Origin: Alphaproteobacteria bacterium
GTDB taxonomy: Bacteria > Pseudomonadota > Alphaproteobacteria > CAAHEQ01 > UBA3637
Assembly (NCBI GenBank): GCA_017539265.1
Contig: JAFYHG010000018.1
Coordinates: forward strand, 8,779 to 72,778
DNA: 64,000 nucleotides
Direction: 5' to 3'
Positions 38,287-59,166 of the stretch are shown in pieces (position 1 is the stretch's first letter; each line of letters opens with the position of its first letter). The notes beneath the pieces are model-generated. The model ran no database searches and was not told where the DNA came from. It was given only the letters and a program-made list of their open reading frames with translations. The position numbers and the translations under genes were made by a program.

Positions 38287-38346
38287 GCATTATTTACACC
38301 TAACTCCAACCTTTTTCCATACGTAAAGTTTTCTGTTTTAGGCGCT

Positions 38347-38371: not shown

Positions 38372-38381
38372 TATTACAAAC

Positions 38382-38398
38382 TGGCGCGCCCGGCAGGA
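38382..38398. repeat. att copy 1 (17-bp duplicate of the tRNA-Arg 3' end)
   Basis: tggcgcgcccggcagga is identical to 43255-43271 and 59090-59106. Confidence 0.85.
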
Positions 38399-38603
38399 GC
38401 TTGGGGGGAAAGCAAAATAACCCACTGGATCAGTTGAAAAATTTTCAGGCAATATTTGAGGGTTTTCAGAAAGTGTCCAGGGGATGACAAGGGGTGATAG
38501 ATGAACAAATTTCTTGATGTATTTCAAGGGTAATTTCATATAAGGATAAAACTGTATTTTTGACACCTGTCTTATAAAAACAAGTTGGGCAAAAGGGCAT
38601 TTG

Positions 38604-38672
38604 TCAAAGATACATCAAAAGACGTCTTGTGGTAATGGCTTGCACCTCTTTATAAAACCTTTTCCAATACAT
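38604..38672 (-). pseudogene. 3' remnant of a homolog of ORF 43477..43938
   Basis: Translates ...KRFYKEVQAITTRRLLMYL-stop, compared with ...DRLYEEGQSIITRRLLKYL-stop. Truncated upstream. Confidence 0.5.
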
Positions 38673-38714
38673 CTTATTTTTTAAACGCTCTAAAAAACAT
38701 TATATTGTGATATG

Positions 38715-39563
38715 TTAGTCAGCATCATAGGTCCATTGACCATTTCTTAATTCAAATTTATCTAGATTAAATTTGACAGTACAATTTCCTTCAGGATCAC
38801 AACCGCCTGATATATTATTAAGATTCTTGATTTTTATATCTGTTATTATCGGAAAACGGTAGTAAAATACTTTTATTTTAAATGTAACCAGACCGGTCTC
38901 ATCTCCTAACATATTCTCAATGTAATCTAACGCCTTATCTTTTGGAAGATTTAGTTTGAAAATATCATATCTTTTTGCTTTATCCAATTTGATGTTAATG
39001 GCAACCGAGGAAGCATAATTTAGTATTGTATCTGCTAGATAATTCGCCCATAATCTATTATACTGATTTTCAAATAGCGTTTTAATCTCTTTTAAATCCT
39101 GATTCTCTTTTTTAAACTGGTACAAAGAAAGCAAAGTGTTCAGATTTTTTATCAATGGTTCTCCTTTACTAAAAATTTTAACTAATTCTTCCGTACTTTC
39201 AAAAGGATAATCTTTCTTTTCTAGAGAAAAACGGTGCAAGGCTGATTCAATGGCGGCATAATAGAGAACATGGTTCAATACCGTATTTACACAAGATTGA
39301 TACCTTTTCCCCTTTGTGAGGCATTGCTCTACTCTTGTTTTGATCTTTGCAGAGTCATAAGCTTTATCTATTGCCACAAGAGTTTCTTCTACCGTATCAG
39401 CATTCATTGTACCATCAATAATTTCTTGGGTGAGTTCCAATAATTTTGTTCTAAAATTAGAAATGGATTCTATTTGTTGACTTGTCATATCAAGGGCGTA
39501 ACTTTTACTTGTCATCAATACAAAAGTAATGACCAGAGCTAAGGATATTTTTATTTTAGACAT
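38715..39563 (-). CDS. hypothetical secreted protein
   Basis: Signal peptide MSKIKISLALVITFVLMTSKSYA. Last gene of a 4-gene same-strand block. Confidence 0.5.
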   Translation of the reverse strand: MSKIKISLALVITFVLMTSKSYALDMTSQQIESISNFRTKLLELTQEIIDGTMNADTVEETLVAIDKAYDSAKIKTRVEQCLTKGKRYQSCVNTVLNHVLYYAAIESALHRFSLEKKDYPFESTEELVKIFSKGEPLIKNLNTLLSLYQFKKENQDLKEIKTLFENQYNRLWANYLADTILNYASSVAINIKLDKAKRYDIFKLNLPKDKALDYIENMLGDETGLVTFKIKVFYYRFPIITDIKIKNLNNISGGCDPEGNCTVKFNLDKFELRNGQWTYDAD

Positions 39564-39566
39564 ATT

Positions 39567-41249
39567 CTAATCCTTTCCGATACAATAAGATTCTGTACCA
39601 TATTCATGTCTTTCTCTTCTTATTTTACGATTTTGGCACATATTACATTGTTCTTCTGCTCCTGTTACATTAAGCCTTGCCAGTCCAATACCATAGTCTC
39701 CTTTGGAATCACAAGAATAACAGTGTGCAAAACCATAGCTTACTTCTAAAATGGGTTTTTCTTCCGGACACGGAATCATACAATATCTTCCGATTAATTT
39801 TCGATTTGGACAAAGCTTACAGTTATTCGTTACACCCTCAAGATCTACTAAATTACTTCCATCATTGCATGCAAAACATTCACCATTTTTATCTCTTAAA
39901 GGTTTATCAGGGGGGCATGACTTTAGGATGCTGTATTTTTCAACAATTTCTCTTTCCGTTTCACAAGCATTAGAGATATTTCCATTTACTTCAATTTTTA
40001 CAGGGGCTGAACAAGCATAGCAGTTACCATCGATATCTACTTGGGGTTTATCTGTTGGACATAATACACAACTGTTCCCCGTATCTAAAACAATTCTATT
40101 AGGACAGATCTGACACACCTCTGCAGCAGCAACACGAATACGAGCAATTTCATCACATGAATGACATTCTCCAACTTCATCCCTAAGGGGTTTATCCTTT
40201 GGACATGTTAAGATACAAATATCGCTATATTTTGTGTGGACAGAATACCTGTTGGGGCACACAGAACAATTTGGTGAGTCAATAGATCTGTTTGCTTCAT
40301 TTTCATCACAAGGATGGCAACGTCCTTCCTTATCGGCCAAAGGTTTGTCCTGTGGACACGGGAGAGAACAGAGATTTCCATACATAATACGGTTTGAACA
40401 TAATTGGCATGTTTGCTCATCGGTTTTTAATTTTTCATCGGTTTCACAATCATAGCATCCTGCGTTTACTCTCATTGGCTTATCAGATGGGCAAGTTTCC
40501 AAAATACATCCATTTTTGTAATCGTATATTCTCTCAGGATATAAAGCACATTGTTGTTTTTGAAAATCTATATTTTCTCTCGCTACATAGGCCCTCAAAG
40601 ATTCTTCTTCGTTTTTAGGTTCCATAAACGTAATAGGTAAAGGATCATCAGTGGCACGACAACCACCATTGCTATCGCGAATTGGGAAGTCTTTTGGACA
40701 TTCCCCCTTTAAAAAACAAATATTCCCGTTTAGTTCACGGTTTGCACATTGTAAACAATTACTTCGTTCATAACTTTGACGGAAGCCTAAATCCAATGCA
40801 GCAGGATCATCACATGAAAAACATTTAAATTCTCTTGTTCGTTCATCAACAATCACTTTAATTGGCTTTTCTTCAGGACAACCGAATGTGCAGGTACCTG
40901 TGGCTCCATCGTTATCTTCAAAAAATTGTGTTCCGGGAATTTGGGCACATTCCCAGTCCGTAAGACCATAAGCATCTTCTCTGGAACAAGCATTATAACC
41001 ACTACCTCTTAAAGGATTGTCTGGTGGACATTCTTTCAGAATACAGTGACCATACTCATCCAATTTTCTATTTGAGCATATGCTTGAGCACTCTTGATTG
41101 TAAACCCCGCGTAGTGTATCACAGGAAAAACATTCCCTATTGTACTCCGCTAATGGTTTATCTGGTGGACAAACAATAGGTTCTTTTTCAGCCATTGCAA
41201 AAGAAGGCATCATTATTGATATAAGTAAAAATAAGGTTGTTTTTTTCAT
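39567..41249 (-). CDS. secreted cysteine-rich repeat protein (10x CPxDKP units)
   Basis: Signal peptide MKKTTLFLLISIMMPSFAMA. Ten units of 45-60 aa of the form CP.[DE]KP[LIM]...C..C[DE]...C..C.NR...C. Confidence 0.6.
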   Translation of the reverse strand: MKKTTLFLLISIMMPSFAMAEKEPIVCPPDKPLAEYNRECFSCDTLRGVYNQECSSICSNRKLDEYGHCILKECPPDNPLRGSGYNACSREDAYGLTDWECAQIPGTQFFEDNDGATGTCTFGCPEEKPIKVIVDERTREFKCFSCDDPAALDLGFRQSYERSNCLQCANRELNGNICFLKGECPKDFPIRDSNGGCRATDDPLPITFMEPKNEEESLRAYVARENIDFQKQQCALYPERIYDYKNGCILETCPSDKPMRVNAGCYDCETDEKLKTDEQTCQLCSNRIMYGNLCSLPCPQDKPLADKEGRCHPCDENEANRSIDSPNCSVCPNRYSVHTKYSDICILTCPKDKPLRDEVGECHSCDEIARIRVAAAEVCQICPNRIVLDTGNSCVLCPTDKPQVDIDGNCYACSAPVKIEVNGNISNACETEREIVEKYSILKSCPPDKPLRDKNGECFACNDGSNLVDLEGVTNNCKLCPNRKLIGRYCMIPCPEEKPILEVSYGFAHCYSCDSKGDYGIGLARLNVTGAEEQCNMCQNRKIRRERHEYGTESYCIGKD

Positions 41250-42022
41250 TGTATAAATCCCCTGATTAACTTATCATCCCATCCTTTGTCAGGACCTGTA
41301 AAAAATCCAAACCCAGAATTAAATTGAAAAAGCTTAACTTCATCCTCAGACATATCTCTTGATTTACCAGAAAGAGCATAAACTTTTCCAGAAACTTTTT
41401 CTCCATCTTGTATTATTTCAAAAGCCTTTCCACCAGTTCTATAAAAGAGTGTTGCTGTGGCTATTTTCTTTTCTTTGTCTACTGATCCAAGATATTTTAA
41501 ATTTCCATTTTTATAATATACCTTAAATTCTCCGGCCTCATCATTTTCTGGATATTCAGCGAATTTTTCACCGCTGGCATAACGCTGTTCTTCTACGTAC
41601 TCCTTTCCATTTTTATAAGTAATACTCCATCTTTGTTCACCATTAATATGGTAATGTATTTCTTTTCCTTCTTTTTCTCCGTTTAAGTATGTTCTTAACA
41701 TTCTTGGAGTCCCATCCGGACGATATTCTTCCAAGGTACCATTGTACTTTCCATCTTTCCAATGAACAATAAAGCGTTTCGTTCCATTGGGCCAATACCA
41801 AATTTCTGTTCCGTTTTTTAGACCATTTTCATAAGGTATTTCTTTTTGAATATTCCCATTTTTAAAGGGAACTTTTACCATCCCTGTAATACTTTGATTG
41901 TTCTGATCTACTACCATATTTAAAGCTGGATCTAAACGGATATCTTTTTCCTGATAAATCGTTTCGGCATTTACAGAAGCCGAAAAGATTAAACACAATG
42001 ATAAAATAAATTTATATTTCAT
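41246..42022 (-). CDS. secreted MORN-variant (YwqK-like) repeat protein
   Basis: Signal peptide MKYKFILSLCLIFSASVNA. Repeats such as YENGLKNGTEIWYWPNGTKRFIVHWKDGKYNGTLEEYRPDG. Confidence 0.65.
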   Translation of the reverse strand: MKYKFILSLCLIFSASVNAETIYQEKDIRLDPALNMVVDQNNQSITGMVKVPFKNGNIQKEIPYENGLKNGTEIWYWPNGTKRFIVHWKDGKYNGTLEEYRPDGTPRMLRTYLNGEKEGKEIHYHINGEQRWSITYKNGKEYVEEQRYASGEKFAEYPENDEAGEFKVYYKNGNLKYLGSVDKEKKIATATLFYRTGGKAFEIIQDGEKVSGKVYALSGKSRDMSEDEVKLFQFNSGFGFFTGPDKGWDDKLIRGFIQ

Positions 42023-42023
42023 A

Positions 42024-42911
42024 TTATCGAGCCCCCAAACTGATACTAAGTGCTATATCCATCAAATAATCTGTTGCTTTTTGTTCGTCTAAAATGCTTT
42101 TTTCCCCGTTCTCAGAATAAAATTCTCCAGCAATGGCCTTATCTCCTTTGATAGTCAACCGCAACATGGGTTTATTATTTTCATAGTAGACCGTATAGAT
42201 ATAATTTGCTTGTTCTTTGAATTCTTCAGGTACTGGTTCTATATAAAGATATATTCTATTATTACTCGCATAGTAAGTTTTGGTATTTGTTGTCTGATCT
42301 TCTGAGAACGAAAGATTCCCTTTATAATCATACTGTTCCCTTATAGAATTATTTTCATAGCAAGATTCTACTTTTCGTGCTGGCAATTCAGTAATTGGTA
42401 ATCCGGTTACTTTTGAAATGCGTTTCTGTGTCGGGTCAATTTTCGACCTGTATCCGGAATAAGGCCTTCCATCTCTATAATACGTACTTTTAACGCATCT
42501 GTTCATTTTGTACTCTGTTTTTTGGGAAATTTCGCCGGGATGATATTTGTCATATTCAATTACCATACCATTTAGATATCCATCCTTAAAATCATACTCT
42601 TTTTCAAGAATATCTTCTCTATCATAACACTTCATCTTCCCGTCTTTTTTACCGTTTTTTACGGAAAGTTCCATCTTATGGCAAACTGACCACGAATTTG
42701 TCCCGGGTAAAGCAAACACCCTTGTCGAAACACTTTTTAACTGATCTGACTCATTATACAATATTGTTCCTGTGATCGGGTTATAGTTCTTATCATAGAT
42801 AATATCACTTTCCCGAACATCAAGAATATCTGTTAAAGAGTAAACTGCTTGCCCAAAAGATACGGAGGGGCATAAAGCAATGAATAATCCCAATATGGCT
42901 ATTTTTTTCAT
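42024..42911 (-). CDS. secreted MORN-variant-like repeat protein
   Basis: ATG 42911 with SD ggggga. Signal peptide MKKIAILGLFIALCPSVSFG. KNGKKDGKMKCYD...FKDGYLNGMVIEYD repeats. Confidence 0.55.
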   Translation of the reverse strand: MKKIAILGLFIALCPSVSFGQAVYSLTDILDVRESDIIYDKNYNPITGTILYNESDQLKSVSTRVFALPGTNSWSVCHKMELSVKNGKKDGKMKCYDREDILEKEYDFKDGYLNGMVIEYDKYHPGEISQKTEYKMNRCVKSTYYRDGRPYSGYRSKIDPTQKRISKVTGLPITELPARKVESCYENNSIREQYDYKGNLSFSEDQTTNTKTYYASNNRIYLYIEPVPEEFKEQANYIYTVYYENNKPMLRLTIKGDKAIAGEFYSENGEKSILDEQKATDYLMDIALSISLGAR

Positions 42912-43254
42912 AACATCCCCCATAATAAAACACTTTTTGTATTGTAAACAATTTTTTTCTAAATGCAAGTGTAAAAAAACGAACATTTTTATTGTCTGCT
43001 GAACTAAATATATTACGAACGTTTTTTAATATTGTTATATAAAATGATCAAAAAGATCTACAAACCGGATATCAAAAAATGCACTAAAAGTTCACCATAA
43101 AGTTCCATAAAAATTGTCCTAAAATCAATTTAAAAATGAGGATAAGAAAAGTGTTTGTTTGTGTCCAAGGATTGTGTCCACCCCTTGTTGCCAAGCAAAA
43201 TTCCCAATTTCAGGCATAAAAAAAGCCTTGATAAACAAGGCATTATTTTAAAAG

Positions 43255-43271
43255 TGGCGCGCCCGGCAGGA
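43255..43271. repeat. att copy 2
   Basis: tggcgcgcccggcagga. Confidence 0.85.
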
Positions 43272-43476
43272 GCTTGGTGGAAAAGTGAAATAACCCACTG
43301 GATCAATTAAAAAATTTTTGGGCGATTTTTGAGGGTTTTCAGAAAGTGCCCAGGGGATGACAAGGGGTGATGAATGGACAAACTTCTTGATGTATTTCAG
43401 GGGTAATTTTACATAAGGATAAAAGTATATTTTGGATATCTGTCATAGGAGCACAGGTTGGGCAAAAAGGCATTTA

Positions 43477-43938
43477 TCAAAGATATTTCAAAAGACGCCT
43501 TGTAATTATGGATTGCCCCTCTTCATAAAGTCTGTCAAGGTACAAGCGTTTCGTAACTCCGTCATTTAAGTCCGAAATATTCCTTATTAGATTATGGACA
43601 CAGTCTATGGAGGGTTTTCTGTGTTCACAAAGGAGCATTCCAAAATAGTACTTGTTCTTGTTCAGGAACTGTTCACTGAACTGGTACTGGCTGTCTATAT
43701 ATCCTAATTTGCGGAGGTACTTATAGCATTTAGTTATAAATTGAGCATCTTCTGTTTGGTCAGAGTAAGGGGGATTGGAGAGTTCATCTGCAACCTCTTC
43801 ATCGACATTTTTGGTGTTTTTAGGTGCGGGTGGCACAAGTTCCTCCGGTGTATTCAGATGCTTTCTGATTTTCCTCATATTTTCGGCAATATCTTCAAAA
43901 CTTACAATCATGAATAATTTCCTTTTAGTAATAGACAT
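43477..43938 (-). CDS. hypothetical protein conserved at the element's tRNA-distal end
   Basis: ORF of 153 aa. A remnant of a homolog lies at the same relative position in the neighbouring element. Confidence 0.5.
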   Translation of the reverse strand: MSITKRKLFMIVSFEDIAENMRKIRKHLNTPEELVPPAPKNTKNVDEEVADELSNPPYSDQTEDAQFITKCYKYLRKLGYIDSQYQFSEQFLNKNKYYFGMLLCEHRKPSIDCVHNLIRNISDLNDGVTKRLYLDRLYEEGQSIITRRLLKYL

Positions 43939-43988
43939 CTGTATTTATAAAGAAAATGATTAAAAAATGGAATTTTTTAAAAAAGATC

Positions 43989-44017
43989 TTGGCTTTTAAA
44001 ATGATCGGCTATATAGT
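43989..44017 (+). promoter_or_regulatory. candidate promoter (island promoter cassette, copy A)
   Basis: TTGGCT-17 nt-TATAGT followed by cccgggcc. Paralogous to 47186-47214. Confidence 0.5.
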
Positions 44018-44060
44018 CCCGGGCCCCGGGCAAGACTGGGGTAACTGAAAGGATAAAAAT

Positions 44061-44432
44061 ATGCTGGAACAACAAATGATACAAAGCGATAACCTGAATA
44101 CCATTATGGCAAATTGCTATGGCACAGAGAATTATTACACAAACAACTATTTGAAATACAATTACACAGACGGAATTAAAACTTTCTGTGAACAGGCATC
44201 CGCTTATTGGTTATTGAGCCTTATCCAAGGGGTTTATACAAAATATCCTCAAATGCGGAAAGATTTAATTGCTATAACACTAATGGTAAATGATGACAAT
44301 ACTGCCATTATTACCTTTACCGATGAAAAAGGTCAATTTTATAAGCAGCGTATTCCTTATACGGATTGTCCGGTAGGAGAATGGAAATTTTATTTTGAAA
44401 ACAATGTATTTTTCTGGAATGGAGAATATTAA
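44061..44432 (+). CDS. hypothetical protein (resembles the DUF6876 plasmid/ICE family, from memory)
   Basis: CYGTENYY...YTDGIKTFCEQASAYWLLSLI motif block. Confidence 0.4.
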   Translation: MLEQQMIQSDNLNTIMANCYGTENYYTNNYLKYNYTDGIKTFCEQASAYWLLSLIQGVYTKYPQMRKDLIAITLMVNDDNTAIITFTDEKGQFYKQRIPYTDCPVGEWKFYFENNVFFWNGEY

Positions 44433-44433
44433 T

Positions 44434-44865
44434 ATGAATAAAGAACAAATTAAAGAAGCAATATTAGGGAAAAAAGATTGTCATGGGGAAGAAACACCTC
44501 TCTGTCAATTTTCAACATTCCATCCGGATATGGAAATGGTGGAGATATTATTAAAAGGTGCGGATATTAATAAATCTTTTAATCACCAACCGATGGCATG
44601 GGTATTTCAATTCTGTGAACCGAATTGGGATGAAATGCTCACGCTTTTGTTCAAATACAAATACCATGCCTTACATCTGGACAGGAAAAGCGATTTTGAA
44701 AGTTTACTGCAACTTTTATCCAGAGTTAAACCGGAAACCGTGATGTATGTCTTAAAAATAATGAAGAAACATAGGTTTCGACCGACATTTGAACAGATTG
44801 ATTACATAAATAAATCAAAAGAGGATTTTAAAAAGGAGTTTAAATGGAAAGACTGGGTGAAATGA
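44434..44865 (+). CDS. hypothetical protein, one degenerate ankyrin-like repeat
   Basis: The ATG at 44434 follows the upstream stop. EMVEILLKGADIN segment. Confidence 0.4.
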   Translation: MNKEQIKEAILGKKDCHGEETPLCQFSTFHPDMEMVEILLKGADINKSFNHQPMAWVFQFCEPNWDEMLTLLFKYKYHALHLDRKSDFESLLQLLSRVKPETVMYVLKIMKKHRFRPTFEQIDYINKSKEDFKKEFKWKDWVK

Positions 44866-45317
44866 CAAAAGGTTTGTTAAAAGCAATCAATGAAAGGAAT
44901 TGGCGAGAAATTAAAAGGCTGGTTCACTTGGGCGGAAACTTAAATGCCGCTTACGATCCGTTTGGAAATACACCCTTTTTATATGCCATGCATATTTTTA
45001 AGAAAGCGGAAGAAATTGAACGCTTGATTAAATTAGGTGGAGATGTGACCTATAAAAACAGGGTGGGAAAAACAGCCTTGATGATAGCAGTTGAAAATGG
45101 GTGTGAACCGATAACGCCTTGGGTTATGGTGGATTATGGAGCGGACATTAATGCACAGGATGCATTGGGAAACACCGCCTTAATGATTTGTTTAGAATCC
45201 AGATTATATACCAAGAAACTGCTTTATGCCCTGATAGATTACGGGGCAGATTTAACCAACCTGAAGAATAAGGAAGGGAAAACAGCGTTTGATATACTAT
45301 ATGATGAATTAGAGTAA
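44844..45317 (+). CDS. ankyrin repeat protein
   Basis: SD aaggag 5 nt before the ATG. Repeats GNTPFLYAM...LIKLGGDV, GKTALMIAVENG, GNTALMICL...LIDYGADL. Confidence 0.75.
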   Translation: MERLGEMTKGLLKAINERNWREIKRLVHLGGNLNAAYDPFGNTPFLYAMHIFKKAEEIERLIKLGGDVTYKNRVGKTALMIAVENGCEPITPWVMVDYGADINAQDALGNTALMICLESRLYTKKLLYALIDYGADLTNLKNKEGKTAFDILYDELE

Positions 45318-45336
45318 TCACTTTTGCGGAGAAGTG

Positions 45337-47076: not shown

Positions 47077-47185
47077 TGCTTTTAAAGGATTTGAAAAATA
47101 AGGCTATTTTATTTTAACCTATATGCCCCAAATTATGAAATGTTTAATTTTAAAGAAAAAACTTATATTTTTTAACATTTAGGGC

Positions 47186-47214
47186 TTGGCTTTTCAAAAA
47201 ATCGGCTGTATGCT
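47186..47214 (+). promoter_or_regulatory. candidate promoter (island promoter cassette, copy B)
   Basis: TTGGCT-17 nt-TATGCT followed by cccgggcc. Confidence 0.5.
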
Positions 47215-47257
47215 CCCGGGCCGCAATAAAAGTTCAATTTTAACGAAAGGATACAAA

Positions 47258-47839
47258 ATGGTTAATCAAGTTTTTATTGACGACAAGAAAATTAAAGACA
47301 TCTTAACTTACATTCAGGGGATGAGACATGCTGAAATGATACGGATGATGTTTTTATGTTCACTGAATGGCATGAGGTCTATAAATTTCGCCTATCTCCA
47401 AGTAGGTGATGTTTATACTCCCGACTTTAAGGTTAAGGATGTCATTTGTTTGGATGCGGATAAAAATAAAGGAAAGTTCGGGTGTTCGTATTATCTTAAC
47501 AGCCAAATGAAGAAAGAGTTTAAGGAGTATTTAGGGTATTTGAAGGCTAAAAATGAAGAGATTACGCCAGAAATGTATTTGTTTACCTCACAAAAGATGG
47601 GAAAACCTTTCAACCGTGTGTCAATTTCACGGATGTTCGCAACCGTTTACAAAAAGTTCAACATTGAAGGAGCATCACACTTGGGGCGACATTTGTTCGT
47701 GAGTCGGCTTATCAATGCTGGAACTAATATCTGTTTGGTTCAGAAACTCGCCAACCATCGCAACATTGGCACAACCCAACGTTATTTTAATTATAACGAG
47801 AAAATGCTCTCAAATGCTGTGGAAAATGTAGTTTTATAG
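47258..47839 (+). CDS. small tyrosine recombinase, FimB/FimE-like size (catalytic domain only)
   Basis: SD aaagga. 193 aa. HLGRHLFVSRL and LANHRNIGTTQRYF catalytic motifs. Confidence 0.75.
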   Translation: MVNQVFIDDKKIKDILTYIQGMRHAEMIRMMFLCSLNGMRSINFAYLQVGDVYTPDFKVKDVICLDADKNKGKFGCSYYLNSQMKKEFKEYLGYLKAKNEEITPEMYLFTSQKMGKPFNRVSISRMFATVYKKFNIEGASHLGRHLFVSRLINAGTNICLVQKLANHRNIGTTQRYFNYNEKMLSNAVENVVL

Positions 47840-47850
47840 CTGTGTGGTAG

Positions 47851-48113: not shown

Positions 48114-48161
48114 TATTACATGTTATTTAATGATTGCGCCAAGTGTTTGATGCATTTGTTT

Positions 48162-49130: not shown

Positions 49131-49146
49131 TTATGGGCGGATTTTC

Positions 49147-49174
49147 AAAAAAAGCGGAGTATTTCTACTCCGCT
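49147..49174 (-). terminator. Rho-independent terminator after the island adhesin
   Basis: On the minus strand, agcggagta-gaaa-tactccgct forms a 9-bp stem followed by ttttttt. Confidence 0.65.
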
Positions 49175-49234
49175 CACTTAAATTAACTAATAGGAAGGGA
49201 GACCGAGAAATCAGTCTCCCCGGAGTTCTTCGCA

Positions 49235-52200: not shown

Positions 52201-52726
52201 CATCTGCATTGGCTTTAACCTGTGTATCCAATAACTTATCTGCGCCAGCCATTGTTGTTGCGCCTGTCAGATAATTTGTACCGGTATACGCATTTGTTAC
52301 CCCAGTTGTTCCGGTGGATAAATCAACGCCCAATGTTTTCTGGGAAATGACACCACCTGTTAATTCTACAAAATCACCAACAGCAGTATTGACAACGGCA
52401 TAATCACCAGCATCTGAACTACCCGCTAGCAATTGTGCTAAAGCATCACGAGTGTATTTGGGGTGAGCCGCTGCAAAATCTGCATCAATGGTGTAATCTG
52501 TTCCACCAAGATTTGTAGTGTAGGTGTCTGTCCCCGTTGTGATGGCTGTATGAAAATTAGTTAAGTTTGTTGCAACTGAAGCAGTAGGGTCATAAGCCTC
52601 ATCTGCTGCCTTTGCACCTGTGGCAACGATTAAGCCCACTGCAAAGGCATTAAGCAGAAAACATTTCTTCAAAACACTACGGTATCTCGCAGAAAGTTCT
52701 CTGATTGTTGTTTTTGTATATTTCAT
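49235..52726 (-). CDS. trimeric autotransporter adhesin (YadA-like), island-borne
   Basis: Extended signal MKYTKTTIRELSARYRSVLKKCFLLNAFAVGLIVATGAKA. Long internal repeats. Anchor ...GAFHYLNDRTLLNAGAAYGGNDSVSYKVGVTFGF. Confidence 0.85.
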   Translation of the reverse strand: MKYTKTTIRELSARYRSVLKKCFLLNAFAVGLIVATGAKAADEAYDPTASVATNLTNFHTAITTGTDTYTTNLGGTDYTIDADFAAAHPKYTRDALAQLLAGSSDAGDYAVVNTAVGDFVELTGGVISQKTLGVDLSTGTTGVTNAYTGTNYLTGATTMAGADKLLDTQVKANADAIATLNGTGDGSVSKTVGDAIDALDLANTYQAKLGTEQLAAVNSGITSTLVGKITTNESAIATLNGTGDGSVSKTVGDAIDALNATETQAAAAGNGQLALSITQENGVITGISGSIAANTYDAYGAAATAKSEAITAAATDATTKANTAEANAKTYAKNYTDTALGTLWDNAEAIFNEKQTWVDNTLGITSANANAVNDEYTGTNYLTAATTLTGADTALDTALKTLSDKVSSISANAPGDAPDAADYGFTDPEGNPTDLVAGASYTSADYTATSAAATVDGISAVADLSYDSGTLTADDYTYVTYDKDGNSTSVAGSTAVAELTDTVQTSDLGGKLDITASSAGTGSVDIANYELTNTAGDHYTIEASEDGYVLKKNGTAVSADDATTAGIKADLVNAYESDVTALANRQSELKGYYDDSVANKDKIATTMATDQATVTNLNNWEGSLQTANTNFTTDTATHEASVAAYDDSLGKVVDGKINTAVTTAVAGVRSEAEAIFAQKQQWVDDTLGITSANANAVNNEYADTNYLTDATTLTGADIVLDAQIKGTNDTIGDVNYADEEAVDGSVLKQGEGSTTTVRGALDALDANKANLADVYTRTEAEAIFNEKQQWVDNTLGITSANSNAVNNEYADTNYLTAATTLTGADIVLDGQIKGLDSRVGNLDTMRTALEVSTEQVGSLAEAVTYVNTQAKGYANTAETNAKNYADGKVNALDANVSQAAGADGLSLSITQTDGKITAISGAIAANTYDAYGAAANALADAKTYADGKVNALDANVSQAAGADGLSLNIVETDGKITSISGAIAANTYDAYGAADTAEANANTYTDNQIALLESATESAFEAVDETVGDLSSLENLKFFKGKEQANGGAVGAQAVGDPSSISDLLTNLNDNLGAEFARVDRRINKLETKMENGLAANNALAGLVPLDHVHKTQVSAALGGYKNNQALAVGAFHYLNDRTLLNAGAAYGGNDSVSYKVGVTFGF

Positions 52727-53005
52727 TAACTATACCTTTCTTTTTAATATTAAAATTAAAGTTACGAGGAGTTCTCTTTTTCAAAACCCTCGTCCGTCAT
52801 CTTACACAAATGTTCCTTTATGAAATGATTTGAAGAAAAGTGATAAAAATAGCATACTTTTGTCTTATATATTATTGTATTTTCAATATGTTATATTCAA
52901 TTTTAATTTTTTTAAAAAAAATGTTAAAAAATGTTTGCAATTTAAGGAACTATTTTTTGCATATGAAATTATCGGCAATAAATAACTTTAACAAAAGGAT
53001 ACAAA

Positions 53006-53617
53006 ATGGCAACTATCGCATATATCAGGGTTAGCAGCGATAAACAAACCTGTTCTAACCAACACTTTACGATTAAAGAATACACAAAATCTCACAATAT
53101 CCACATTGATAAATGGGTTGAAGAGACTATTTCCAGCAAGAAACCTTTGGAAAAGCGGGAATTAGGCGTATTATTAAATAAAATGGATAAAGGCAGTTTA
53201 TTAATTGTAACGGAAATCAGCCGTCTTGCCCGTAATCTATACGAATTGGCGGGCATATTGCAAAATGCTATTAAGAACGACATTACTGTTATTAGTATCA
53301 AGGAAAACTATCAGTTCAAAAATGATATCCAGTCCAAAATTATGGCATATACTTTTGGGCTTGCCGCAGAAATTGAGCGTGATTTGATCTCAACCCGCAC
53401 TAAAATGTCATTGGATAAATTAAAAAAGCAAAATGTTAAATTAGGCAGACCATTCGGGGCGGAGACAAAATGTTTAAAACTATCCAAAAACCGCAAGAAA
53501 ATAAGGGAATTATTAGGAAAAGGTGTCAGTCAGGCCAAAATATCCAAAATCCTTGGCGTCCACCCGACAACCATGTGCCGGTTCTTGAAACGAGTGGATG
53601 TGTCAACCTGTTCCTGA
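53006..53617 (+). CDS. serine recombinase (resolvase/invertase family)
   Basis: AYIRVSSDKQ catalytic serine region, SRLARN motif, C-terminal HTH GVSQAKISKILGVHPTTMCRFLKR. Confidence 0.85.
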   Translation: MATIAYIRVSSDKQTCSNQHFTIKEYTKSHNIHIDKWVEETISSKKPLEKRELGVLLNKMDKGSLLIVTEISRLARNLYELAGILQNAIKNDITVISIKENYQFKNDIQSKIMAYTFGLAAEIERDLISTRTKMSLDKLKKQNVKLGRPFGAETKCLKLSKNRKKIRELLGKGVSQAKISKILGVHPTTMCRFLKRVDVSTCS

Positions 53618-53767
53618 TGGGAATGTTCCTCGCCAAAAGGCGGCTAACCACTTTGTTTTTGATCTTGTATGACGGCATCAGGCAGTTTAATCCCACTTAT
53701 TATACAAAAGCCCTCTATTTTAATCCCAAATAAAAGGAATCTATTATCAAATTCACCTCTATAATAG

Positions 53768-53800
53768 TTCTATTTTATTTCTATTATAATTCTATTATAG
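53768..53800. repeat. three tandem AT-rich 11-mers (DUE-like)
   Basis: ttctattttat / ttctattataa / ttctattatag, head to tail. Confidence 0.6.
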
Positions 53801-53854
53801 GAACAAAAAACACCCAGATAGGCCTTGTGTTTATTGGCGTTTCTCAAATTGTAC

Positions 53855-54047
53855 CGAACATAACAGTCTCCGCTACCGAACATATGGGCACCGGGAGCGA
53901 ACATATGAGCATCGCTAGCGAACATAACAGTCTCCAAAATTGCCCAAACCGAACATATAAGCATCGCCCCCCTAAAAAACGAACATATCAACCTCTAGCG
54001 AATAATTTTTTTGTAAATCGGTGAAATCCATCATCGAGCGAATAAAT
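53855..54047. repeat. iteron-like direct repeats (CGAACATA core)
   Basis: Cores at 53855, 53877, 53898, 53919, 53950 and 53980, plus CGAATAA variants at 53999 and 54039. Spacing 21-22 or 30-31 bp. Confidence 0.6.
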
Positions 54048-54076
54048 ACCCCTGTAAATCAATTTTAGGAGGTTTT

Positions 54077-54589
54077 ATGAGTAAAAGTAAATCAGATTTG
54101 TCCCTCACAAAGCGTGTGTTGTTGGACTTTGTAAAATTTAAGACCCAAAACGGGCATCAATTCTTTGCGAGCAACGAGTATATTGCCAAAGGTTTAGATC
54201 TAACCGAGAATACTGCCAAGACATTTGTTAATGACCTTATAAGAGAAGGATACCTTTATAAAGAGATAGATAAGAGAGGCATGAGAATTTTATCCCTAAC
54301 CGGTAAGGAATACAAACCATTGTTTGAAGATTTGAGGAACTTTGATAAGAAAGTACTTAAAGAGGACAGAGATAACTTTCAAAGGGATAACAAATATTTG
54401 AACCAACAGTTAGAACAGGAAACAGCATATAAGGAACAACTATTAAACGAAAATACAGATTTAGTCCTTTCCAATGCTGAACTAACCCATCGTGTTCAGG
54501 AACTGGAAAAGAGAGTTACTGCTTTGGAGAACATCTTTTATAAAAATGGAATGACAAAGGAACAACTGGAGGATTTATTGAATAAATAA
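54077..54589 (+). CDS. winged-helix + coiled-coil protein, candidate Rep/regulator for the adjacent iterons
   Basis: SD aggagg. N-terminal wHTH-like FASNEYIAKGLDLTENTAKTFVNDLIREGYLYK. C-terminal heptad-rich segment. Confidence 0.45.
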   Translation: MSKSKSDLSLTKRVLLDFVKFKTQNGHQFFASNEYIAKGLDLTENTAKTFVNDLIREGYLYKEIDKRGMRILSLTGKEYKPLFEDLRNFDKKVLKEDRDNFQRDNKYLNQQLEQETAYKEQLLNENTDLVLSNAELTHRVQELEKRVTALENIFYKNGMTKEQLEDLLNK

Positions 54590-54628
54590 AAATGTGGGCA
54601 TGCTTTCAACCACACTTCATAAAAATAC

Positions 54629-54655
54629 ACCCTCAACTCTCGTTGAGGGTTTTTG
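54629..54655. terminator. bidirectional terminator hairpin between convergent genes
   Basis: accctcaac-tctc-gttgagggt forms a 9-bp stem with a T-run after it and an A-run before it. Confidence 0.55.
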
Positions 54656-55022
54656 CTTGTTTCTGTTGATCCAATGCCCAATCCAGAATCTGTTTCCTTC
54701 GTTCAAAGGCATTCTCTTTCGGGAACTTTTCTTCATAGCGGTCAAGCATAGCGTAAAGCAAAAGTGAAGCAAACGGATTCTTGTTAAATGCGGCATAATC
54801 CCTGGCAGTCCAACCTCTATAATCCATATAATTCGGATTTGCTCCATGTTCCAGCAGATATTCAACAACCGTCAAGTCACCCGATAGCATACAACAAACT
54901 TGAAGTATTGATGACAATTGAGTGTTTATCGGTTGATTGATATCATCCAGTAGCGACACAACATACTTAACATCCTCAATTGTATCTACAAATACTTCAT
55001 CTTTATCTTCCTGATTTTCCAT
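54633..55022 (-). CDS. ankyrin repeat protein
   Basis: LEHGANPNYMDYRGWTARDYAAFNKN repeat and a preceding degenerate repeat. Confidence 0.6.
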   Translation of the reverse strand: MENQEDKDEVFVDTIEDVKYVVSLLDDINQPINTQLSSILQVCCMLSGDLTVVEYLLEHGANPNYMDYRGWTARDYAAFNKNPFASLLLYAMLDRYEEKFPKENAFERRKQILDWALDQQKQAKTLNES

Positions 55023-55206
55023 TTTTTGCCTCCGTTCTTTTGAAATCTAGTAAAAATTTAGCAACTGCCTTTTGATATTCAACCTTTTCCGGTTCTAGTA
55101 ACTCTTCGTATATATCTAGCAATTTCTCCAAAGTATCCTTTAATTTATCTTCGGGCGTATGCCTTAAAGTGAACTGAACCGCTTTTAATAAAGACATTCC
55201 CAACAT
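55003..55206 (-). CDS. hypothetical small protein
   Basis: 67-aa ORF overlapping the ankyrin gene start. Preceded by a 24-codon mini-ORF (55207..55280) with SD aaaggag and a TAATG junction. Confidence 0.35.
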   Translation of the reverse strand: MLGMSLLKAVQFTLRHTPEDKLKDTLEKLLDIYEELLEPEKVEYQKAVAKFLLDFKRTEAKNGKSGR

Positions 55207-55448
55207 TATTGCTCCTTTTCATCTCTGATGATCTGCTCCATGCATATTTTCATGGCATTTAATATTCTTTCTGCTATCATTTTGACTCCTTTATTTTAAT
55301 TCAAGGATATTTATCGGGGCGATTTCAAAATGGAATCATTTTCAAAAAACGAATCCTTTTTGAGCCGATTTGGGGGATTTTAGATTATTTTTGAAGAAAT
55401 TCCCCGAAAAAACATTCAAAAAAATACCCCCCTTTTTCATTTTTTTTA

Positions 55449-55487
55449 CATCAATATCCATCAATATCGCCATTTTTACATCAATAT
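55449..55487. repeat. three phased CATCAATAT direct repeats
   Basis: Copies start at 55449, 55459 and 55479 (10 and 20 bp apart), in an A-tract-rich spacer upstream of 55607. Confidence 0.5.
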
Positions 55488-55606
55488 AGATTCCCTTCAA
55501 AAAAAAGTTATTGCGGCAATTTTATTTCTGGATATTCTTTTGCTTACCAATGCGGGGTGGTCTCGCAAAGGTGCCAACAATCTAACGAAAAGAAAGGAAA
55601 TTAAAA

Positions 55607-56113
55607 ATGTTAGAAAATACAGAAAATCAAACCATGGAATCCTTTATGAGTTCCTTTGGGATTGTTCCCATGACAACCATTAAGGATGAAGGATTGCTTT
55701 CATTCGACAATTGCAAAGACAGAATTCTGAAAATGATTGAATTAAATATTCAGAACTTTAAGAACAATCTTTGGAACGAGAGAAATTACATGATGAAGAT
55801 GCTGGTTGACCTTGATCCAAAGCGTAATAAATCCATTTGCACAGTCCGTTTAGGCGGCAAAAGGGTTTATAAATGCAATTGTGAAACCTTAAACACACCG
55901 AGAAAAGTTGAATTTTTAACCAAGTTCTATGAAGGCGTTTCCAGAGGGTTCTTGGATAAAAAGATTACGGAATTCTGTGAACGACAGGTTGCTTTGGCAG
56001 AAGACCGTAAGAAAATCCAACGGGAAAAGCGTAAAGCACAAAGAAAAGCAGATCGTGAAGCCTTAAAAAAGCAAGAGGCTGAAGTGCAATCACATCAGCC
56101 CCACATTGCTTGA
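55607..56113 (+). CDS. hypothetical protein with basic C-terminal tail
   Basis: SD aaagga. 168 aa. C-terminus KKIQREKRKAQRKADREALKKQ. Confidence 0.45.
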   Translation: MLENTENQTMESFMSSFGIVPMTTIKDEGLLSFDNCKDRILKMIELNIQNFKNNLWNERNYMMKMLVDLDPKRNKSICTVRLGGKRVYKCNCETLNTPRKVEFLTKFYEGVSRGFLDKKITEFCERQVALAEDRKKIQREKRKAQRKADREALKKQEAEVQSHQPHIA

Positions 56114-56179
56114 TTATTTAACAGAGAGTGGAAAACTGGAACTTTTTCACTCTCATAACCTAACAAAAGGAATTATACT

Positions 56180-56341
56180 ATGACTGAAATTAAAAGTCAA
56201 ATAAAAATGCGTGATGTATTGCGGCAACTCCATCAACCGGAAGAGGTCTACAGGGAATATCTTTATAGTTCTGAAGATGAGCAAAGATTTTTAGAACATG
56301 TTGTGGACACAATTTTAACCAAGGGCTATATGCCGGCATAA
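56180..56341 (+). CDS. possible 53-aa ORF (below the ORF-track cutoff)
   Basis: aaaaggaattatactATG. MTEIKSQIKMRDVLRQLHQPEEVYREYLYSSEDEQRF... Ends 15 nt before the next gene. Confidence 0.3.
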   Translation: MTEIKSQIKMRDVLRQLHQPEEVYREYLYSSEDEQRFLEHVVDTILTKGYMPA

Positions 56342-56356
56342 GAAAGGAGGTAAAAG

Positions 56357-56926
56357 ATGAAAAATATTGAAGAGATGACCTTAAAAGAGGCAATAGACGA
56401 ATTATCAGAAATGCTTTTGGATTACTTGCCGGACAATGATGATAACGACAGATTTGAGGAACTATATGAAAAAATTAGAGAAGAAGTAGATGATATAGAT
56501 GTTGATACAAAAGATTTTATAGCACATGTGGAGTTTTATCCACTTGATGGAGATGAGATATATGAAACAGACACCAATATTATCTCTGGAGATTTTTTTG
56601 ATTGGCGGCATTCAAGTGACTTTGGTCCGCCAGCAGAAGCATGGCTCGCGGTTTTTAATGCCAGTCAGTGTTCACTTCAAAAAAAGTGTGCAACTTATCC
56701 TTTGGAAAAGATTCAAAAAGAATTGACAGATGATGTGTTGCAAAAGGTCTTCAAGGGACATGGTTTAGTAGATTTTAGATACCTATTGGCAAATCCTCGT
56801 AAGGATGTCGTGGGATGGGCATTGAAGCACAAGTATGAACTTAATTTCAGAGGTATACCACCAGAGTTCATAGAGGAGCGTCAGGCAATTCCTGAACTAA
56901 AGGAACTTATCTTAAAGACCTTATAA
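56357..56926 (+). CDS. hypothetical acidic protein
   Basis: SD aaggagg. 189 aa. Asp/Glu-rich N-terminal half. Confidence 0.45.
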   Translation: MKNIEEMTLKEAIDELSEMLLDYLPDNDDNDRFEELYEKIREEVDDIDVDTKDFIAHVEFYPLDGDEIYETDTNIISGDFFDWRHSSDFGPPAEAWLAVFNASQCSLQKKCATYPLEKIQKELTDDVLQKVFKGHGLVDFRYLLANPRKDVVGWALKHKYELNFRGIPPEFIEERQAIPELKELILKTL

Positions 56927-56969
56927 AAAAACAGAGCAAATTCCATAAAGGGCTTGACATTTGCGACCT

Positions 56970-56983
56970 GATCTGATCAGATC
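56970..56983. promoter_or_regulatory. 14-bp perfect palindrome (candidate operator) in the integrase promoter region
   Basis: gatctgatcagatc lies 11 nt after a TTGACA at 56954-56959 and upstream of the ATG at 57007. Confidence 0.35.
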
Positions 56984-57006
56984 GCGATCCTTAAAAGGGA
57001 GAATGA

Positions 57007-58779
57007 ATGTCATACCACTATCCTGGACTGATTATATTATACGGGCAATTTTATATTAGGGTTAGAATACCCGCCTGTTTAAGAATGATCGCCAGATGCA
57101 AAGAGATAAGATATTCATTACAAACAAAAATCTATCAGGAAGCAATTGAAAAGTACCACGTGGAATTTGCTCATTTACAAGCATTTTTAACAATTTTTAA
57201 GGATATAATTATGAAAGTAAATGAGAATAAACAATTAACTTTAACTGAAACTGATGTGGACAAATTATTGCTCCACAGGTTAGAACAAATCCAAACCTTT
57301 TTGGAAAATAATGTAGATGAAATCAAGTCCCGACATAAGTCCGAGGCAGATATTATTTTGCTCTCAAGGGATAAAAAAGAAGCGGATATCCGCAAATTAA
57401 TGCAGGATATGATTTTGGGTTATTTGAAAGGACTGGTGGATAAAAATAAGGCAAATATCACTTTGCGGATGATTTACACTCAACTCAAAAATAAAGAGAT
57501 TGAGTTGGGGTTAGTGCAACAGGGGGAAAAATATGATTGGTTAAAAGCATTTTCCACCCACATTAACCATTTAGACCATTATGCCCAAAAATCTGTTAAG
57601 GCAATCCAAGAGGAAAAGCATTATGCCCCAACCAACCCAAAGGTTATAACCCTTTTGCGCACTTATGATTCCATGAAAACGGATGAGCGAATTCACTGTT
57701 CTATGGCAGCAACCCATTGGAAAAAGTTTTTCAAACGCTATCTGACGATGAAAAAGAATATTAAAGGGACATCTAATAAAAGGTTGTGTAAATTGGAGAA
57801 ATGTATTTGGTTAGCATTTGCACTTATGAAACGGGAGTATGTAGAAGATGTAACCAAACAGGATTGTCGCCAACTTTGCGAACTGATACATCGAGTTCCG
57901 AAACGGTGGCAAGAAAAAATTAGGGGAGATGATATTTTCCAAATTTTGACAGATAACCCTGAAAAGGCACTATCTAAAACAACCATTCAAGGATACTTAA
58001 CAGTATTTAAGGAGTACATGCGTTATGCTGAAAGAGAGGAGATTATTTCCAATAATTTGAATAGCGCAGTAGATGTACCTATCAATGTAAAACCATTTCA
58101 GCGAGAACCCTTTACAGCGAAAGATTTACACAAGATGTTTAATTCAGAAACATATATAGATCCCCGTATCAGAAAGGATTTACCCAAATTCTGGATACCA
58201 ATTATAGCCCTTTACCATGGTTGTCGTTTGAATGAAATCTGTCAATTGGATGTCAATGATATTGTGCAAGAAAAGGGAATACCTTGTATCAGCATTAATG
58301 CAAATGCCCCAGATAAATCCGTTAAAAATAAAGGATCTGAACGAATAATACCACTACATCCAAAACTAATTGAAATGGGATTTTTATATTATGTTGAATA
58401 TCAAAAACGAGGGCACAAACGAAAATTGTTTGACCTAAAACAGATTAAAAACGGGATGTATGGTAGTCCGGTCCAACATTGGTTTGCACGATATTTAGAT
58501 AGTATTGGGATAACGGAAACAACCAAAGTTTTTCATTCGTTCCGGCATACTTTTGAGACAATGGCAACAGAAAAGAGAATTCCCCCACAATATCAAAATG
58601 CAATTTGTGGGTGGACAGAACAAGGCATTGGACAAAGACTTTATGCCCACAAGAAGGACATGAACATTATGTTAGAAGAAATCAGCAAAATTAACTATCC
58701 AATCAATCGTGAACTGTCAGAACTAAAGAAGTCTTTCATGGATTCATTTGTTGTCAGGTCTTTAAGGGCAAATGGATAA
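57007..58779 (+). CDS. tyrosine integrase (tRNA-targeting, long N-terminal arm domain)
   Basis: N-terminal FYIRVRIP...EIRYSLQT. Catalytic CRLNEICQL, HSFRHTF and GQRLYAH motifs. Adjacent to tRNA-Arg. Confidence 0.85.
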   Translation: MSYHYPGLIILYGQFYIRVRIPACLRMIARCKEIRYSLQTKIYQEAIEKYHVEFAHLQAFLTIFKDIIMKVNENKQLTLTETDVDKLLLHRLEQIQTFLENNVDEIKSRHKSEADIILLSRDKKEADIRKLMQDMILGYLKGLVDKNKANITLRMIYTQLKNKEIELGLVQQGEKYDWLKAFSTHINHLDHYAQKSVKAIQEEKHYAPTNPKVITLLRTYDSMKTDERIHCSMAATHWKKFFKRYLTMKKNIKGTSNKRLCKLEKCIWLAFALMKREYVEDVTKQDCRQLCELIHRVPKRWQEKIRGDDIFQILTDNPEKALSKTTIQGYLTVFKEYMRYAEREEIISNNLNSAVDVPINVKPFQREPFTAKDLHKMFNSETYIDPRIRKDLPKFWIPIIALYHGCRLNEICQLDVNDIVQEKGIPCISINANAPDKSVKNKGSERIIPLHPKLIEMGFLYYVEYQKRGHKRKLFDLKQIKNGMYGSPVQHWFARYLDSIGITETTKVFHSFRHTFETMATEKRIPPQYQNAICGWTEQGIGQRLYAHKKDMNIMLEEISKINYPINRELSELKKSFMDSFVVRSLRANG

Positions 58780-59052
58780 AAGGGCAAAGGTGTTCAAAAT
58801 ACATTTTAGGCAACCGTCATGGGAATCATATTAGGGTGTTCAAGCGGTAAAAAATCCAAAAGGTGAAATGGTATCAATGTCATCAAAAAGTTCGTGGCAA
58901 AAAGTTTAGGATGAAAGGGGTTGATGAAAGTGTTTTTGAATAGCCAGATAATGCTGAAAACTAGCTGTAAAAAGCACATGTCACAGAAGTCTTTGTGTCC
59001 AAGGATTGTGGCCAACCCCTGTGGCCAAGCAAAATCACCCTGTTTCAGGCAC

Positions 59053-59076
59053 AAAAAAAGCCTTGATAAACAAGGC
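59053..59076 (-). terminator. element-supplied terminator downstream of tRNA-Arg
   Basis: On the minus strand, gccttg-tttat-caaggc followed by ttttttt. The same hairpin occurs at 43223-43240. Confidence 0.5.
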
Positions 59077-59089
59077 ATTATTCTAAAAG

Positions 59090-59106
59090 TGGCGCGCCCG
59101 GCAGGA
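59090..59106. repeat. att copy 3 (within the tRNA)
   Basis: tggcgcgcccggcagga corresponds to tRNA positions 60-76. Confidence 0.85.
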
Positions 59107-59166
59107 TTCGAACTTACAACCTTCTGATCCGTAGTCAGATGCTCTATCCAATTGAGCTACGGGCGC
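59090..59166 (-). tRNA. tRNA-Arg (anticodon ACG)
   Basis: Manual fold: acceptor GCGCCCG/CGGGCGC, D arm GCTC/GAGC, anticodon stem TCTGA/TCAGA with loop CTACGGA, T loop TTCGAAT, encoded CCA. The T stem GTAAG/CCTGC has one A-C mismatch and one G-U. Confidence 0.85.

Follow-up and report, generated by a model that had tools for sequence, protein, structure and literature searches.

A 20.7-kb foreign insert (38382-59106) lies beside the tRNA-Arg(ACG) gene of an uncultured ruminant-gut alphaproteobacterium, and it is very probably a tandem array of two site-specifically integrated elements that belong to one family of tRNA-targeting islands. All coordinates refer to the 64,000-nt stretch of DNA that was analyzed, hereafter the window. 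The tRNA-distal unit, element A (38399-43254; 4,856 bp), is gene-poor and keeps both of its attachment (att) sites without genes for integration or transfer. The tRNA-proximal unit, element B (43272-59089; 15,818 bp), carries an integrase (Int). Three co-oriented att copies delimit the units, and the internal one, att2, is situated between a left arm and a right arm.

The att core is a 17-mer, TGGCGCGCCCGGCAGGA in its plus-strand reading, that constitutes the 3′ terminal 17 nt of tRNA-Arg(ACG). Its exact recurrence at 38382, 43255, and 59090, from which the preliminary description of this DNA started, was confirmed, and all coordinates given there hold. No fourth copy occurs in the window with up to 3 mismatches allowed, and three copies were reached in 0 of 100 shuffles of the window, the chance expectation being 0. 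Base composition breaks exactly at att1 and att3. GC content is 34% in A and 37% in B, as against 44-45% in the flanks, and GC skew is small between att1 and att3 and -0.2 to -0.3 in the flanks. The array is not an assembly artefact, because its junctions recur in independent assemblies. All three are present at 99.98-100% identity in independent metagenome assemblies (ERZ27256873, SRR12529267, SRR31077518, and ERZ28653651 for the A-B and outer junctions), and att2, the A-B junction, is spanned by the independent contig L092.

The sequences adjoining the cores form two homologous pairs of arms, paired as a tandem array demands. The right (P′) arms of A and B are 84% identical over ~257 bp, and identity drops to ~53% just past this block; the left (P) arms are 90% identical over ~98 bp, with ~50% identity just past them. 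Homologies of about these lengths, to the right of copies 1 and 2 and to the left of copies 2 and 3, had been described earlier and are borne out. The right arm of B also aligns with the right arms of loci L043, L097, L101, and L103. Each left arm in the window carries three repeats of the form TGTG(T/G)CCA at 13-bp spacing. Those of A start at 43160 (TGTGTCCA), 43173 (TGTGTCCA), and 43186 (TGTTGCCA), and those of B at 58994 (TGTGTCCA), 59007 (TGTGGCCA), and 59020 (TGTGGCCA), which places the latter 96, 83, and 70 nt from the core.

The same design is seen when the 130 nt to the left of the tRNA 3′ end are aligned across the family. Three direct 8-mers with 13-bp spacing start ~96, ~83, and ~70 nt from the core and are followed by a conserved TTTAGGCAT-like motif, an A-run, a hairpin, and a TTATTT..AAAAG segment that abuts the tRNA end. 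This layout is common to elements at different tRNAs, and the repeat sequence itself varies by lineage: GTGTTACA is found in L011, L013, L015-L023, and L043, GTGTCCCA in L012, L014, and L040, and GACGTGT or GTGACGG types in an integrase subfamily of 50-55% identity. The phased triple repeat is very likely the arm-type site of the integrase. The preliminary description had proposed such a role for a GTGTCCA motif at both kinds of ends. In the left arms this motif proves to be one unit of the triple repeat. In the right arms, a single GTGTCCA (A) or GTGCCCA (B) occurs ~75 nt from the core, and the same column reads GGTGTGTCACC in elements whose left-arm repeat is GTGTTACA, which is only suggestive of an arm site. 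Across the whole window, GTGTCCA occurs 13 times on both strands, and TGTGTCCA 6 times, 3 of them within left arms; a window-wide enrichment of GTGTCCA was considered and rejected, as the copies outside the arms fit chance.

The hairpins of both left arms score as terminator-like on the tRNA (minus) strand. Together with its U-run, such a hairpin is a predicted intrinsic terminator that would now end the tRNA transcript. Hairpin stems vary across 21 left-arm terminators with both sides changed, as judged only by eye; RNAalifold pair counts on this set were unusable, with stems aligned in different registers.

Int of B consists of an N-terminal DUF6538 domain, a long helical middle, and a tyrosine-recombinase catalytic domain, in which the residues R407, H510, R513, W536, and Y546 do not vary across the family alignment. 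Its AlphaFold model (predicted local distance difference test score, pLDDT, 72) matches the Brujita, lambda, and Tn1549 integrases, and the N-terminus of the model forms a three-strand sheet plus a helix, as in arm-binding domains. The int gene ends 310 bp from the tRNA, and its product is 100% identical to an NCBI protein annotated as coming from a metagenome-assembled Alphaproteobacteria bacterium. There are 67 homologues of >45% identity, and a scan of GTDB representative genomes yielded 37 related loci (L011-L047), called the family loci here. All of them come from metagenome-assembled genomes of Alphaproteobacteria from the gut of ruminants or other herbivores, often several per genome. 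As in the window, 25 of the 37 have a tRNA gene 0.3-0.9 kb downstream of int, encoded by the other strand. Targeted tRNAs comprise Arg-ACG, Glu, Leu-TAA, Leu-CAA, Thr, Ala, His, Met, Ser-GCT, Ser-TGA, Val-TAC, and Val-GAC, to which two more distant loci add Lys, for at least 13 tRNA species altogether. Locus L011, from another species, combines tRNA-Arg(ACG) with an Int that is 78% identical. An integrase profile scan of IMG/VR gave only relatives at 27-31% identity, so the family is not listed as viral there. A literature search found no paper on DUF6538, and the lineage and element family are undescribed as far as the searchable literature shows.

Element A was earlier described as lacking an integrase and keeping only a 3′ remnant of an end-proximal open reading frame (ORF), and both statements are correct. 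No recombinase domain was found in any A protein, and the end of the right arm keeps the last ~18 codons of the DUF6626 gene (~38604-38660, minus strand); A reads RFYKEVQAITTRRLLMYL before the stop, and the C-terminus of the DUF6626 protein of B reads RLYEEGQSIITRRLLKYL. That an integrase is found in the proximal element only is true of the att-site integrase, with the qualification that B holds three recombinase genes altogether. All four proteins of the cargo operon of A have N-terminal signal peptides. The 560-aa protein is Cys-rich with CPxDKP repeats, and the sole Pfam match among the four is MORN_2 in the 258-aa protein; the 320-aa protein has none, and its counterpart in L106 has a faint MORN_2 match.

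The 282-aa protein of A has only two homologues among 5.8 billion proteins, in L104 and L106. In L104, a homologous four-gene operon lies mid-element in a full, integrase-bearing family member that sits at a tRNA-Leu(TAA)-type att and is colinear with the backbone of B (DUF6626, DUF6876, small recombinase, resolvase, 168-aa protein, and Int). In L106, the operon adjoins a YadA-like gene. Because its operon lies inside the full element L104, A is best read as a deletion derivative of an L104-like element, one that would have kept the two arms and the operon.

Decay and stacking are also seen in relatives. For example, at tRNA-Thr in L038 (6700-7120), a 220-bp unit lies between two att copies, one an exact 19-mer and one with 2 mismatches, with a left-arm-like hairpin outside the unit. 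This unit, which stands in tandem with an integrase-bearing element of 5.2 kb, represents an extreme stage of decay. Past the distal att of L104, there is a second left arm (18720-18900) with a hairpin and three CCCGTCA repeats at 13-bp spacing, a repeat type of the other subfamily, as well as a 142-aa integrase fragment (20013-20441); stacking therefore mixes subfamilies at one tRNA-Leu site. Left-arm scars with two or three GTGTTACA repeats and a hairpin are located directly downstream of tRNA-Met and tRNA-Phe (L043, 3068-3260; L017, 5840-6023) without an adjacent integrase. At several other, untargeted tRNAs, a terminator is followed by an ATGC..AAA motif resembling the arm consensus, and many tRNA terminators in this clade may be derived from elements.

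The following mechanism is proposed. Element B would be a complete family member whose lambda-type Int recombines the 17-bp core with the chromosomal tRNA gene, and its left arm would supply three phased arm-type sites plus a replacement tRNA terminator. The N-terminal domain of Int would contact the triple repeats, and the core would be bound by the central and catalytic domains. Element A would have arisen from a full-length relative that lost its integrase and backbone, with the arms, ~18 codons of the end gene, and one cargo operon remaining. The array would have formed by accretion, with one element integrating at an att of a locus that already contained another; its structure gives no order of arrival. 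If Int of B can still recombine any pair of the three att sites, then A, B, or A+B could excise, and excision of A in trans is a prediction of this model.

Insert-free alleles of the site exist in relatives, where the preliminary description had suggested looking for an empty rpsB-tRNA-Arg site. Contigs retrieved from other samples by exact-protein look-up with RpsB (L003, L005, and the partial L004) have tRNA-Arg directly upstream of rpsB and no insert. Identity to the window in the flanks is 95.8%, 99.3%, and 93.6%, respectively, with an overall range of 93.6-99.4%, and the tRNA sequence is identical. Together with the tRNA-targeting family and the presence of the A operon within a full relative, these alleles support the pattern of accretion with a cis-mobilizable element (CIME) that had been proposed for this locus.

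Several observations weigh against the tandem-array interpretation. One is the left junction. Homology to the insert-free alleles ends at 38299-38305, and where the window has 76 bp, those alleles carry an unrelated 124 bp. The insert-free allele is thus not the exact pre-integration site, and at least one further event must be assumed, such as an older element or replacement of the allele by homologous recombination. In addition, the third arm repeat of A is degenerate (TGTTGCCA), and the register of its arm is shifted by 1 nt. No circular junction and no A-only or B-only state was found in any assembly, and the same A-B array is seen on every contig that encodes A or B proteins. The search for either element alone employed exact-protein look-ups of RpsB, the ROK kinase, Int, the 320-aa protein of A, and DUF6626, which returned only the A-B array or insert-free alleles. 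A scan of JGI metagenomes with a 23-mer of att plus P′ produced one chance match in a high-GC coding region and no extra junction. Finally, no excisionase was identified among the unannotated proteins with PHROGs, NCBIfam, or PADLOC. A Logan contig (L008) that ends in the tRNA at 59134 was considered as a sign of site heterogeneity and rejected, a k-mer branch in a conserved tRNA being uninformative.

The 76-bp segment resembles family left arms. Positions 38332-38381 align with the left-arm consensus (..TTTTTT-GCGCCTAAAAC) without the triple repeats, and a hairpin at 38352-38369 with a U-run on the minus strand folds at -13.6 kcal/mol. In the 124-bp segment of the insert-free alleles, the 39 bp beside the tRNA are left-arm-like; the hairpin there is identical to the A/B hairpin at 17/17 positions, and 26/26 positions are identical to the arm of a tRNA-Ala element in another genome. 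A single integration or excision does not suffice to convert either allele into the other. Judging from these sequences, either both segments would be scars of older elements, or the occupied allele would have come from another strain. It had been claimed that the left-arm hairpin replaced the native tRNA terminator, now stranded at 38347-38371. The left-arm hairpins are indeed terminator-like, but the hairpin at 38347-38371 cannot be called native, as insert-free alleles carry a different segment at that place. The hairpin at 38352-38369 is well placed to stop transcription from the tRNA or the A operon before the rpsB promoter and leader.

The state of A is the point on which an alternative comes closest to the proposed model, and the chance that A is an inert fossil is only a little below even. 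Such a unit would no longer be excisable alone or in trans and would persist as part of the chromosome or as a passenger of att1 × att3 recombination. The exclusive occurrence of the A-B array in all assemblies agrees with this, as do the 10-16% difference between the arms of A and those of B, the degenerate third repeat, and a candidate inverted TGTGTCCA at 43595 in B, of which the matching part is deleted in A. Against it, the core is exact, neither the first two arm repeats nor the right-arm motif is damaged, and both arms are kept almost precisely to the limits of arm homology in a unit that has otherwise only one operon left.

A further alternative concerns where the array formed. It is a distinct, if not the favored, possibility that the A+B composite was acquired en bloc, either as an excised attL-attR circle or by homologous recombination from another strain. 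Simple integration into the insert-free allele would not produce the left junction, with its unrelated 76 and 124 bp, and L005 lacks the whole insert even though its flanks are 99.3% identical. Transfer of composites of a CIME and an integrative conjugative element (ICE) is also documented (PMC5704250). Acquisition of this kind is nevertheless compatible with tandem accretion and merely moves its origin to a donor, of which no allele was found.

It is very improbable that A and B form one element with an internal pseudo-att, for instance through internal duplication. The co-occurrence of A and B gene sets in the single elements L104 and L106 would fit this explanation. However, att2 has a complete left arm with three repeats and a terminator on its left and a complete right arm on its right, an internal att is missing from the equivalent position in L104, and arms that differ by 10-16% speak against a recent internal duplication. 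The last alternative, that the repeats are chance or leftovers of tRNA gene duplication in a low-GC region that is not mobile, can point to the tRNA-derived repeats and to nothing more, and the insert-free alleles and the comparison across the family (an integrase beside the tRNA in 25/37 loci) refute it, besides the shuffling result.

Beyond the tandem array itself, a wider proposal can be formulated, although as a joint statement it is doubtful. According to it, the elements represent a tycheposon-like family of cargo islands, undescribed so far, that target tRNA genes and are confined to ruminant-gut Alphaproteobacteria. Its integrases would have diversified over at least 13 tRNA species with the left-arm design, three phased arm sites and a portable tRNA terminator, kept constant. 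Decay products, both left-arm scars and att-flanked units without an integrase such as A, would persist as resident tRNA terminators and trans-mobilizable cargo cassettes, the rpsB/tRNA-Arg site would have been used at least three times, and A would be an active satellite of B. The features of the locus are listed in Table 1.

Table 1. Features of the A-B array and its borders in the 64,000-nt window.
Feature	Position	Strand	Basis or remarks
76-bp segment between conserved rpsB upstream region and att1	38306-38381	minus	Not in insert-free alleles
att copy 1 (att1)	38382-38398		Distal junction, chromosome side/right arm of A; exact 17-mer
Right (P′) arm of A	38399-38655		GTGTCCA at 38473-38479; DUF6626 3′ remnant
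A cargo operon, four genes (282, 560, 258, 320 aa)	38715-42986	minus	ORFs, translations
Left (P) arm of A	43158-43254		Three 8-bp repeats; terminator hairpin 43225-43241
att copy 2 (att2)	43255-43271		Internal junction, left arm of A/right arm of B; exact 17-mer
Right (P′) arm of B	43272-43529		GTGCCCA at 43346-43352; overlaps 3′ end of DUF6626 gene
DUF6626 gene, 153 aa, end-proximal	43477-43938	minus	Pfam PF20331
Conserved B block	44061-47839		Pfam; same block in L103 and L104
DUF6876	44061-44432	plus	Pfam
B block, 156-aa protein		plus	
B block, ankyrin protein, 157 aa		plus	
B block, 579-aa protein		minus	
Small tyrosine recombinase, catalytic domain only, 193-217 aa	47186/47258-47839	plus	Pfam
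B cargo	48162-52726	minus	Multi-helix-turn-helix (HTH) protein, 322 aa; YadA-anchor adhesin
YadA-anchor trimeric autotransporter adhesin, 1163 aa	49235-52726	minus	
Integrase-side module of B	53006-56926		Pfam, PHROGs; kept in 9-20/37 family loci
Serine resolvase	53006-53617	plus	
HTH_36 protein	54077-54589	plus	Weak DnaD/replication-initiator-like matches
Ankyrin protein	54633-55022	minus	
Conserved protein, 168 aa	55607-56113	plus	
Conserved protein, 189 aa	56357-56926	plus	
Int, 590 aa	57007-58779	plus	Pfam PF20172 (DUF6538), PF00589 (Phage_integrase)
Left (P) arm of B	58992-59089		Three repeats; terminator hairpin 59060-59076
att copy 3 (att3)	59090-59106		Inside tRNA-Arg 3′ end; exact 17-mer
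tRNA-Arg(ACG)	59090-59166	minus	ARAGORN, Rfam tRNA; sole tRNA gene in window
Core-adjoining, chromosomal side left of att1			CTTTATTACAAAC
Core-adjoining, start of A right arm after att1			GCTTGGGGGGAAAGCA
Core-adjoining, end of A left arm before att2			GGCATTATTTTAAAAG
Core-adjoining, start of B right arm after att2			GCTTGGTGGAAAAGTG
Core-adjoining, end of B left arm before att3			GGCATTATTCTAAAAG
Core-adjoining, tRNA side right of att3			TTCGAACTTACAACC

The DUF6626 gene is present in 19 of the 37 family loci and has 92 homologues. Its AlphaFold2 model is all-helical (pLDDT 71), with non-significant Foldseek matches (E ~1) to Xre and C-protein HTH folds, so the protein may be Xre-like and is a candidate for a conserved, end-proximal regulator, or directionality factor. 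The place of the gene differs between subfamilies, as a comparison of the window with L024-L047 shows. In the integrase subfamily of 50-55% identity, it is encoded on the int strand in the interval from int to the tRNA. In the window and in L043, L097, L103, and L104, it is found at the other end of the element and reads towards the distal att. Most of the 92 homologues sit on contigs <3 kb, which suggests that assemblies break at this gene.

The small tyrosine recombinase of B has 81-90% protein identity to its counterparts in L039, L026, and L021 and ~83% DNA identity to that in L104, and the conservation of the main integrase across these loci is much lower. A 38-nt direct repeat (43988-44025 and 47185-47222; 84% identical) occurs ~35-55 nt upstream of the DUF6876 and small recombinase genes, in both cases in a divergent intergenic region. 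It resembles a promoter or operator that has been duplicated (CTTGGC-N16-TATATA), and a search of L103 and L104 that tolerated 3 mismatches did not recover it. The adhesin gene contains nested repeats of 167-180 nt that are 80-100% identical, some of them perfect over 71 nt, and its GC content of ~43% is host-like, unlike that of the remainder of B. As for integrases that share a contig, L025 and L026 (SUUS01000016.1, 30 kb) are two co-oriented family integrases with 83% DNA identity, located 17.9 kb apart; no tRNA gene was detected on that contig.

The T-stem of tRNA-Arg(ACG) contains an A52.C62 mismatch. It seems native to the clade and not brought by the element, because the insert-free alleles and L011 (12074-12150) share it. 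In the tRNA of L011, pair 51-63 covaries from A-T to G-C. To the left of the insert, an rpsB leader (Rfam RF01815, 46.9 bits) occupies 38108-38226 on the minus strand, ~80 bp from the edge of the variable segment, and the island therefore abuts the rpsB promoter region. The rpsB and tsf genes are usually adjacent. Here, three ORFs of 186, 179, and 179 aa (35648-37295, minus strand; called as 186, 179, and 173 aa in metagenome records) lie between them, none with a Pfam match, and they are found in all related contigs, including insert-free ones. Past the right end of the window, L006 (1-3369) encodes a Phage_T7_tail-domain protein (441 aa) and large LRR_5 proteins; these genes come after a PtsP-like gene on the source contig, ~5-8 kb to the right of the tRNA.

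With respect to known classes, the insert has the properties of a tRNA-associated island: an integrase beside the tRNA, the tRNA 3′ end duplicated at the far end, insert-free relatives, and a distinct composition. No relaxase, coupling protein, type IV secretion system (T4SS), or oriT-type module was found in the A and B proteins, of which several are unannotated, with Pfam, PHROGs, NCBIfam, and PADLOC. Likewise, no capsid, terminase, or packaging gene was detected in A or B, with only weak replication-initiator-like matches from PHROGs. Since no relaxase, T4SS, or phage genes were found, B is not established as an ICE or an integrative mobilizable element. The unannotated A and B proteins gave no defence system in PHROGs, NCBIfam, or PADLOC, and Pfam and PHROGs gave no primase or helicase in B.

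The array shows how genes for surface and secreted proteins, namely a YadA-type adhesin, ankyrin proteins, and a four-gene secreted-protein operon, move and accumulate in uncultured ruminant-gut Alphaproteobacteria. The family also offers att cores, arm motifs, and integrases of different tRNA specificity for the study of how tyrosine integrases are retargeted.

At the level of the recombinase, Int resembles the lambda and Tn916/Tn1549 integrases in its fold, which matches those of lambda, Tn1549, and Brujita, and in its N-terminal sheet-plus-helix domain. Short repeated arm motifs 70-96 bp from the core are a further likeness to lambda-type systems, with binding presumed from their arrangement. 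Unlike the lambda and Tn1549 integrases, Int is 590 aa long, with a ~250-aa helical insert between the N-domain and the core-binding domain, and its N-domain is Pfam DUF6538.

The tycheposons of Prochlorococcus carry a tyrosine recombinase, often a small serine recombinase, and cargo, use several tRNA targets without conjugation genes, and pile up between partial tRNA copies, leaving degenerate remnants (bioRxiv 10.1101/2020.12.28.424599). The family in the window likewise combines tyrosine and small serine recombinases with cargo, several tRNA targets, stacking, and remnants. In contrast to tycheposons, B has no primase/helicase module, only a weak DnaD-like HTH protein, and the hosts belong to a different phylum and habitat; the likeness is drawn from gene content and arrangement.

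ICESt1 and ICESt3 target fda in Streptococcus. The CIME accretion model for these elements (Pavlovic et al. 2004; Bellanger et al. 2011) is summarized in PMC5704250, as is the path of decay to a CIME followed by accretion. The array in the window differs in that it occupies the 3′ end of a tRNA gene in an uncultured alphaproteobacterium of the gut, that the partner element B has no recognizable conjugation or mobilization genes, and that cis or trans mobilization of its units is a prediction. As in CIME accretion, there are three direct att copies, the internal one chimeric with one arm from each unit, and A has lost its integration genes, keeps both att sites, and appears to be a deletion product of a related full element. 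There is already good documentation of tandem accretion that involves a decayed unit, and the present case is confirmatory rather than surprising.

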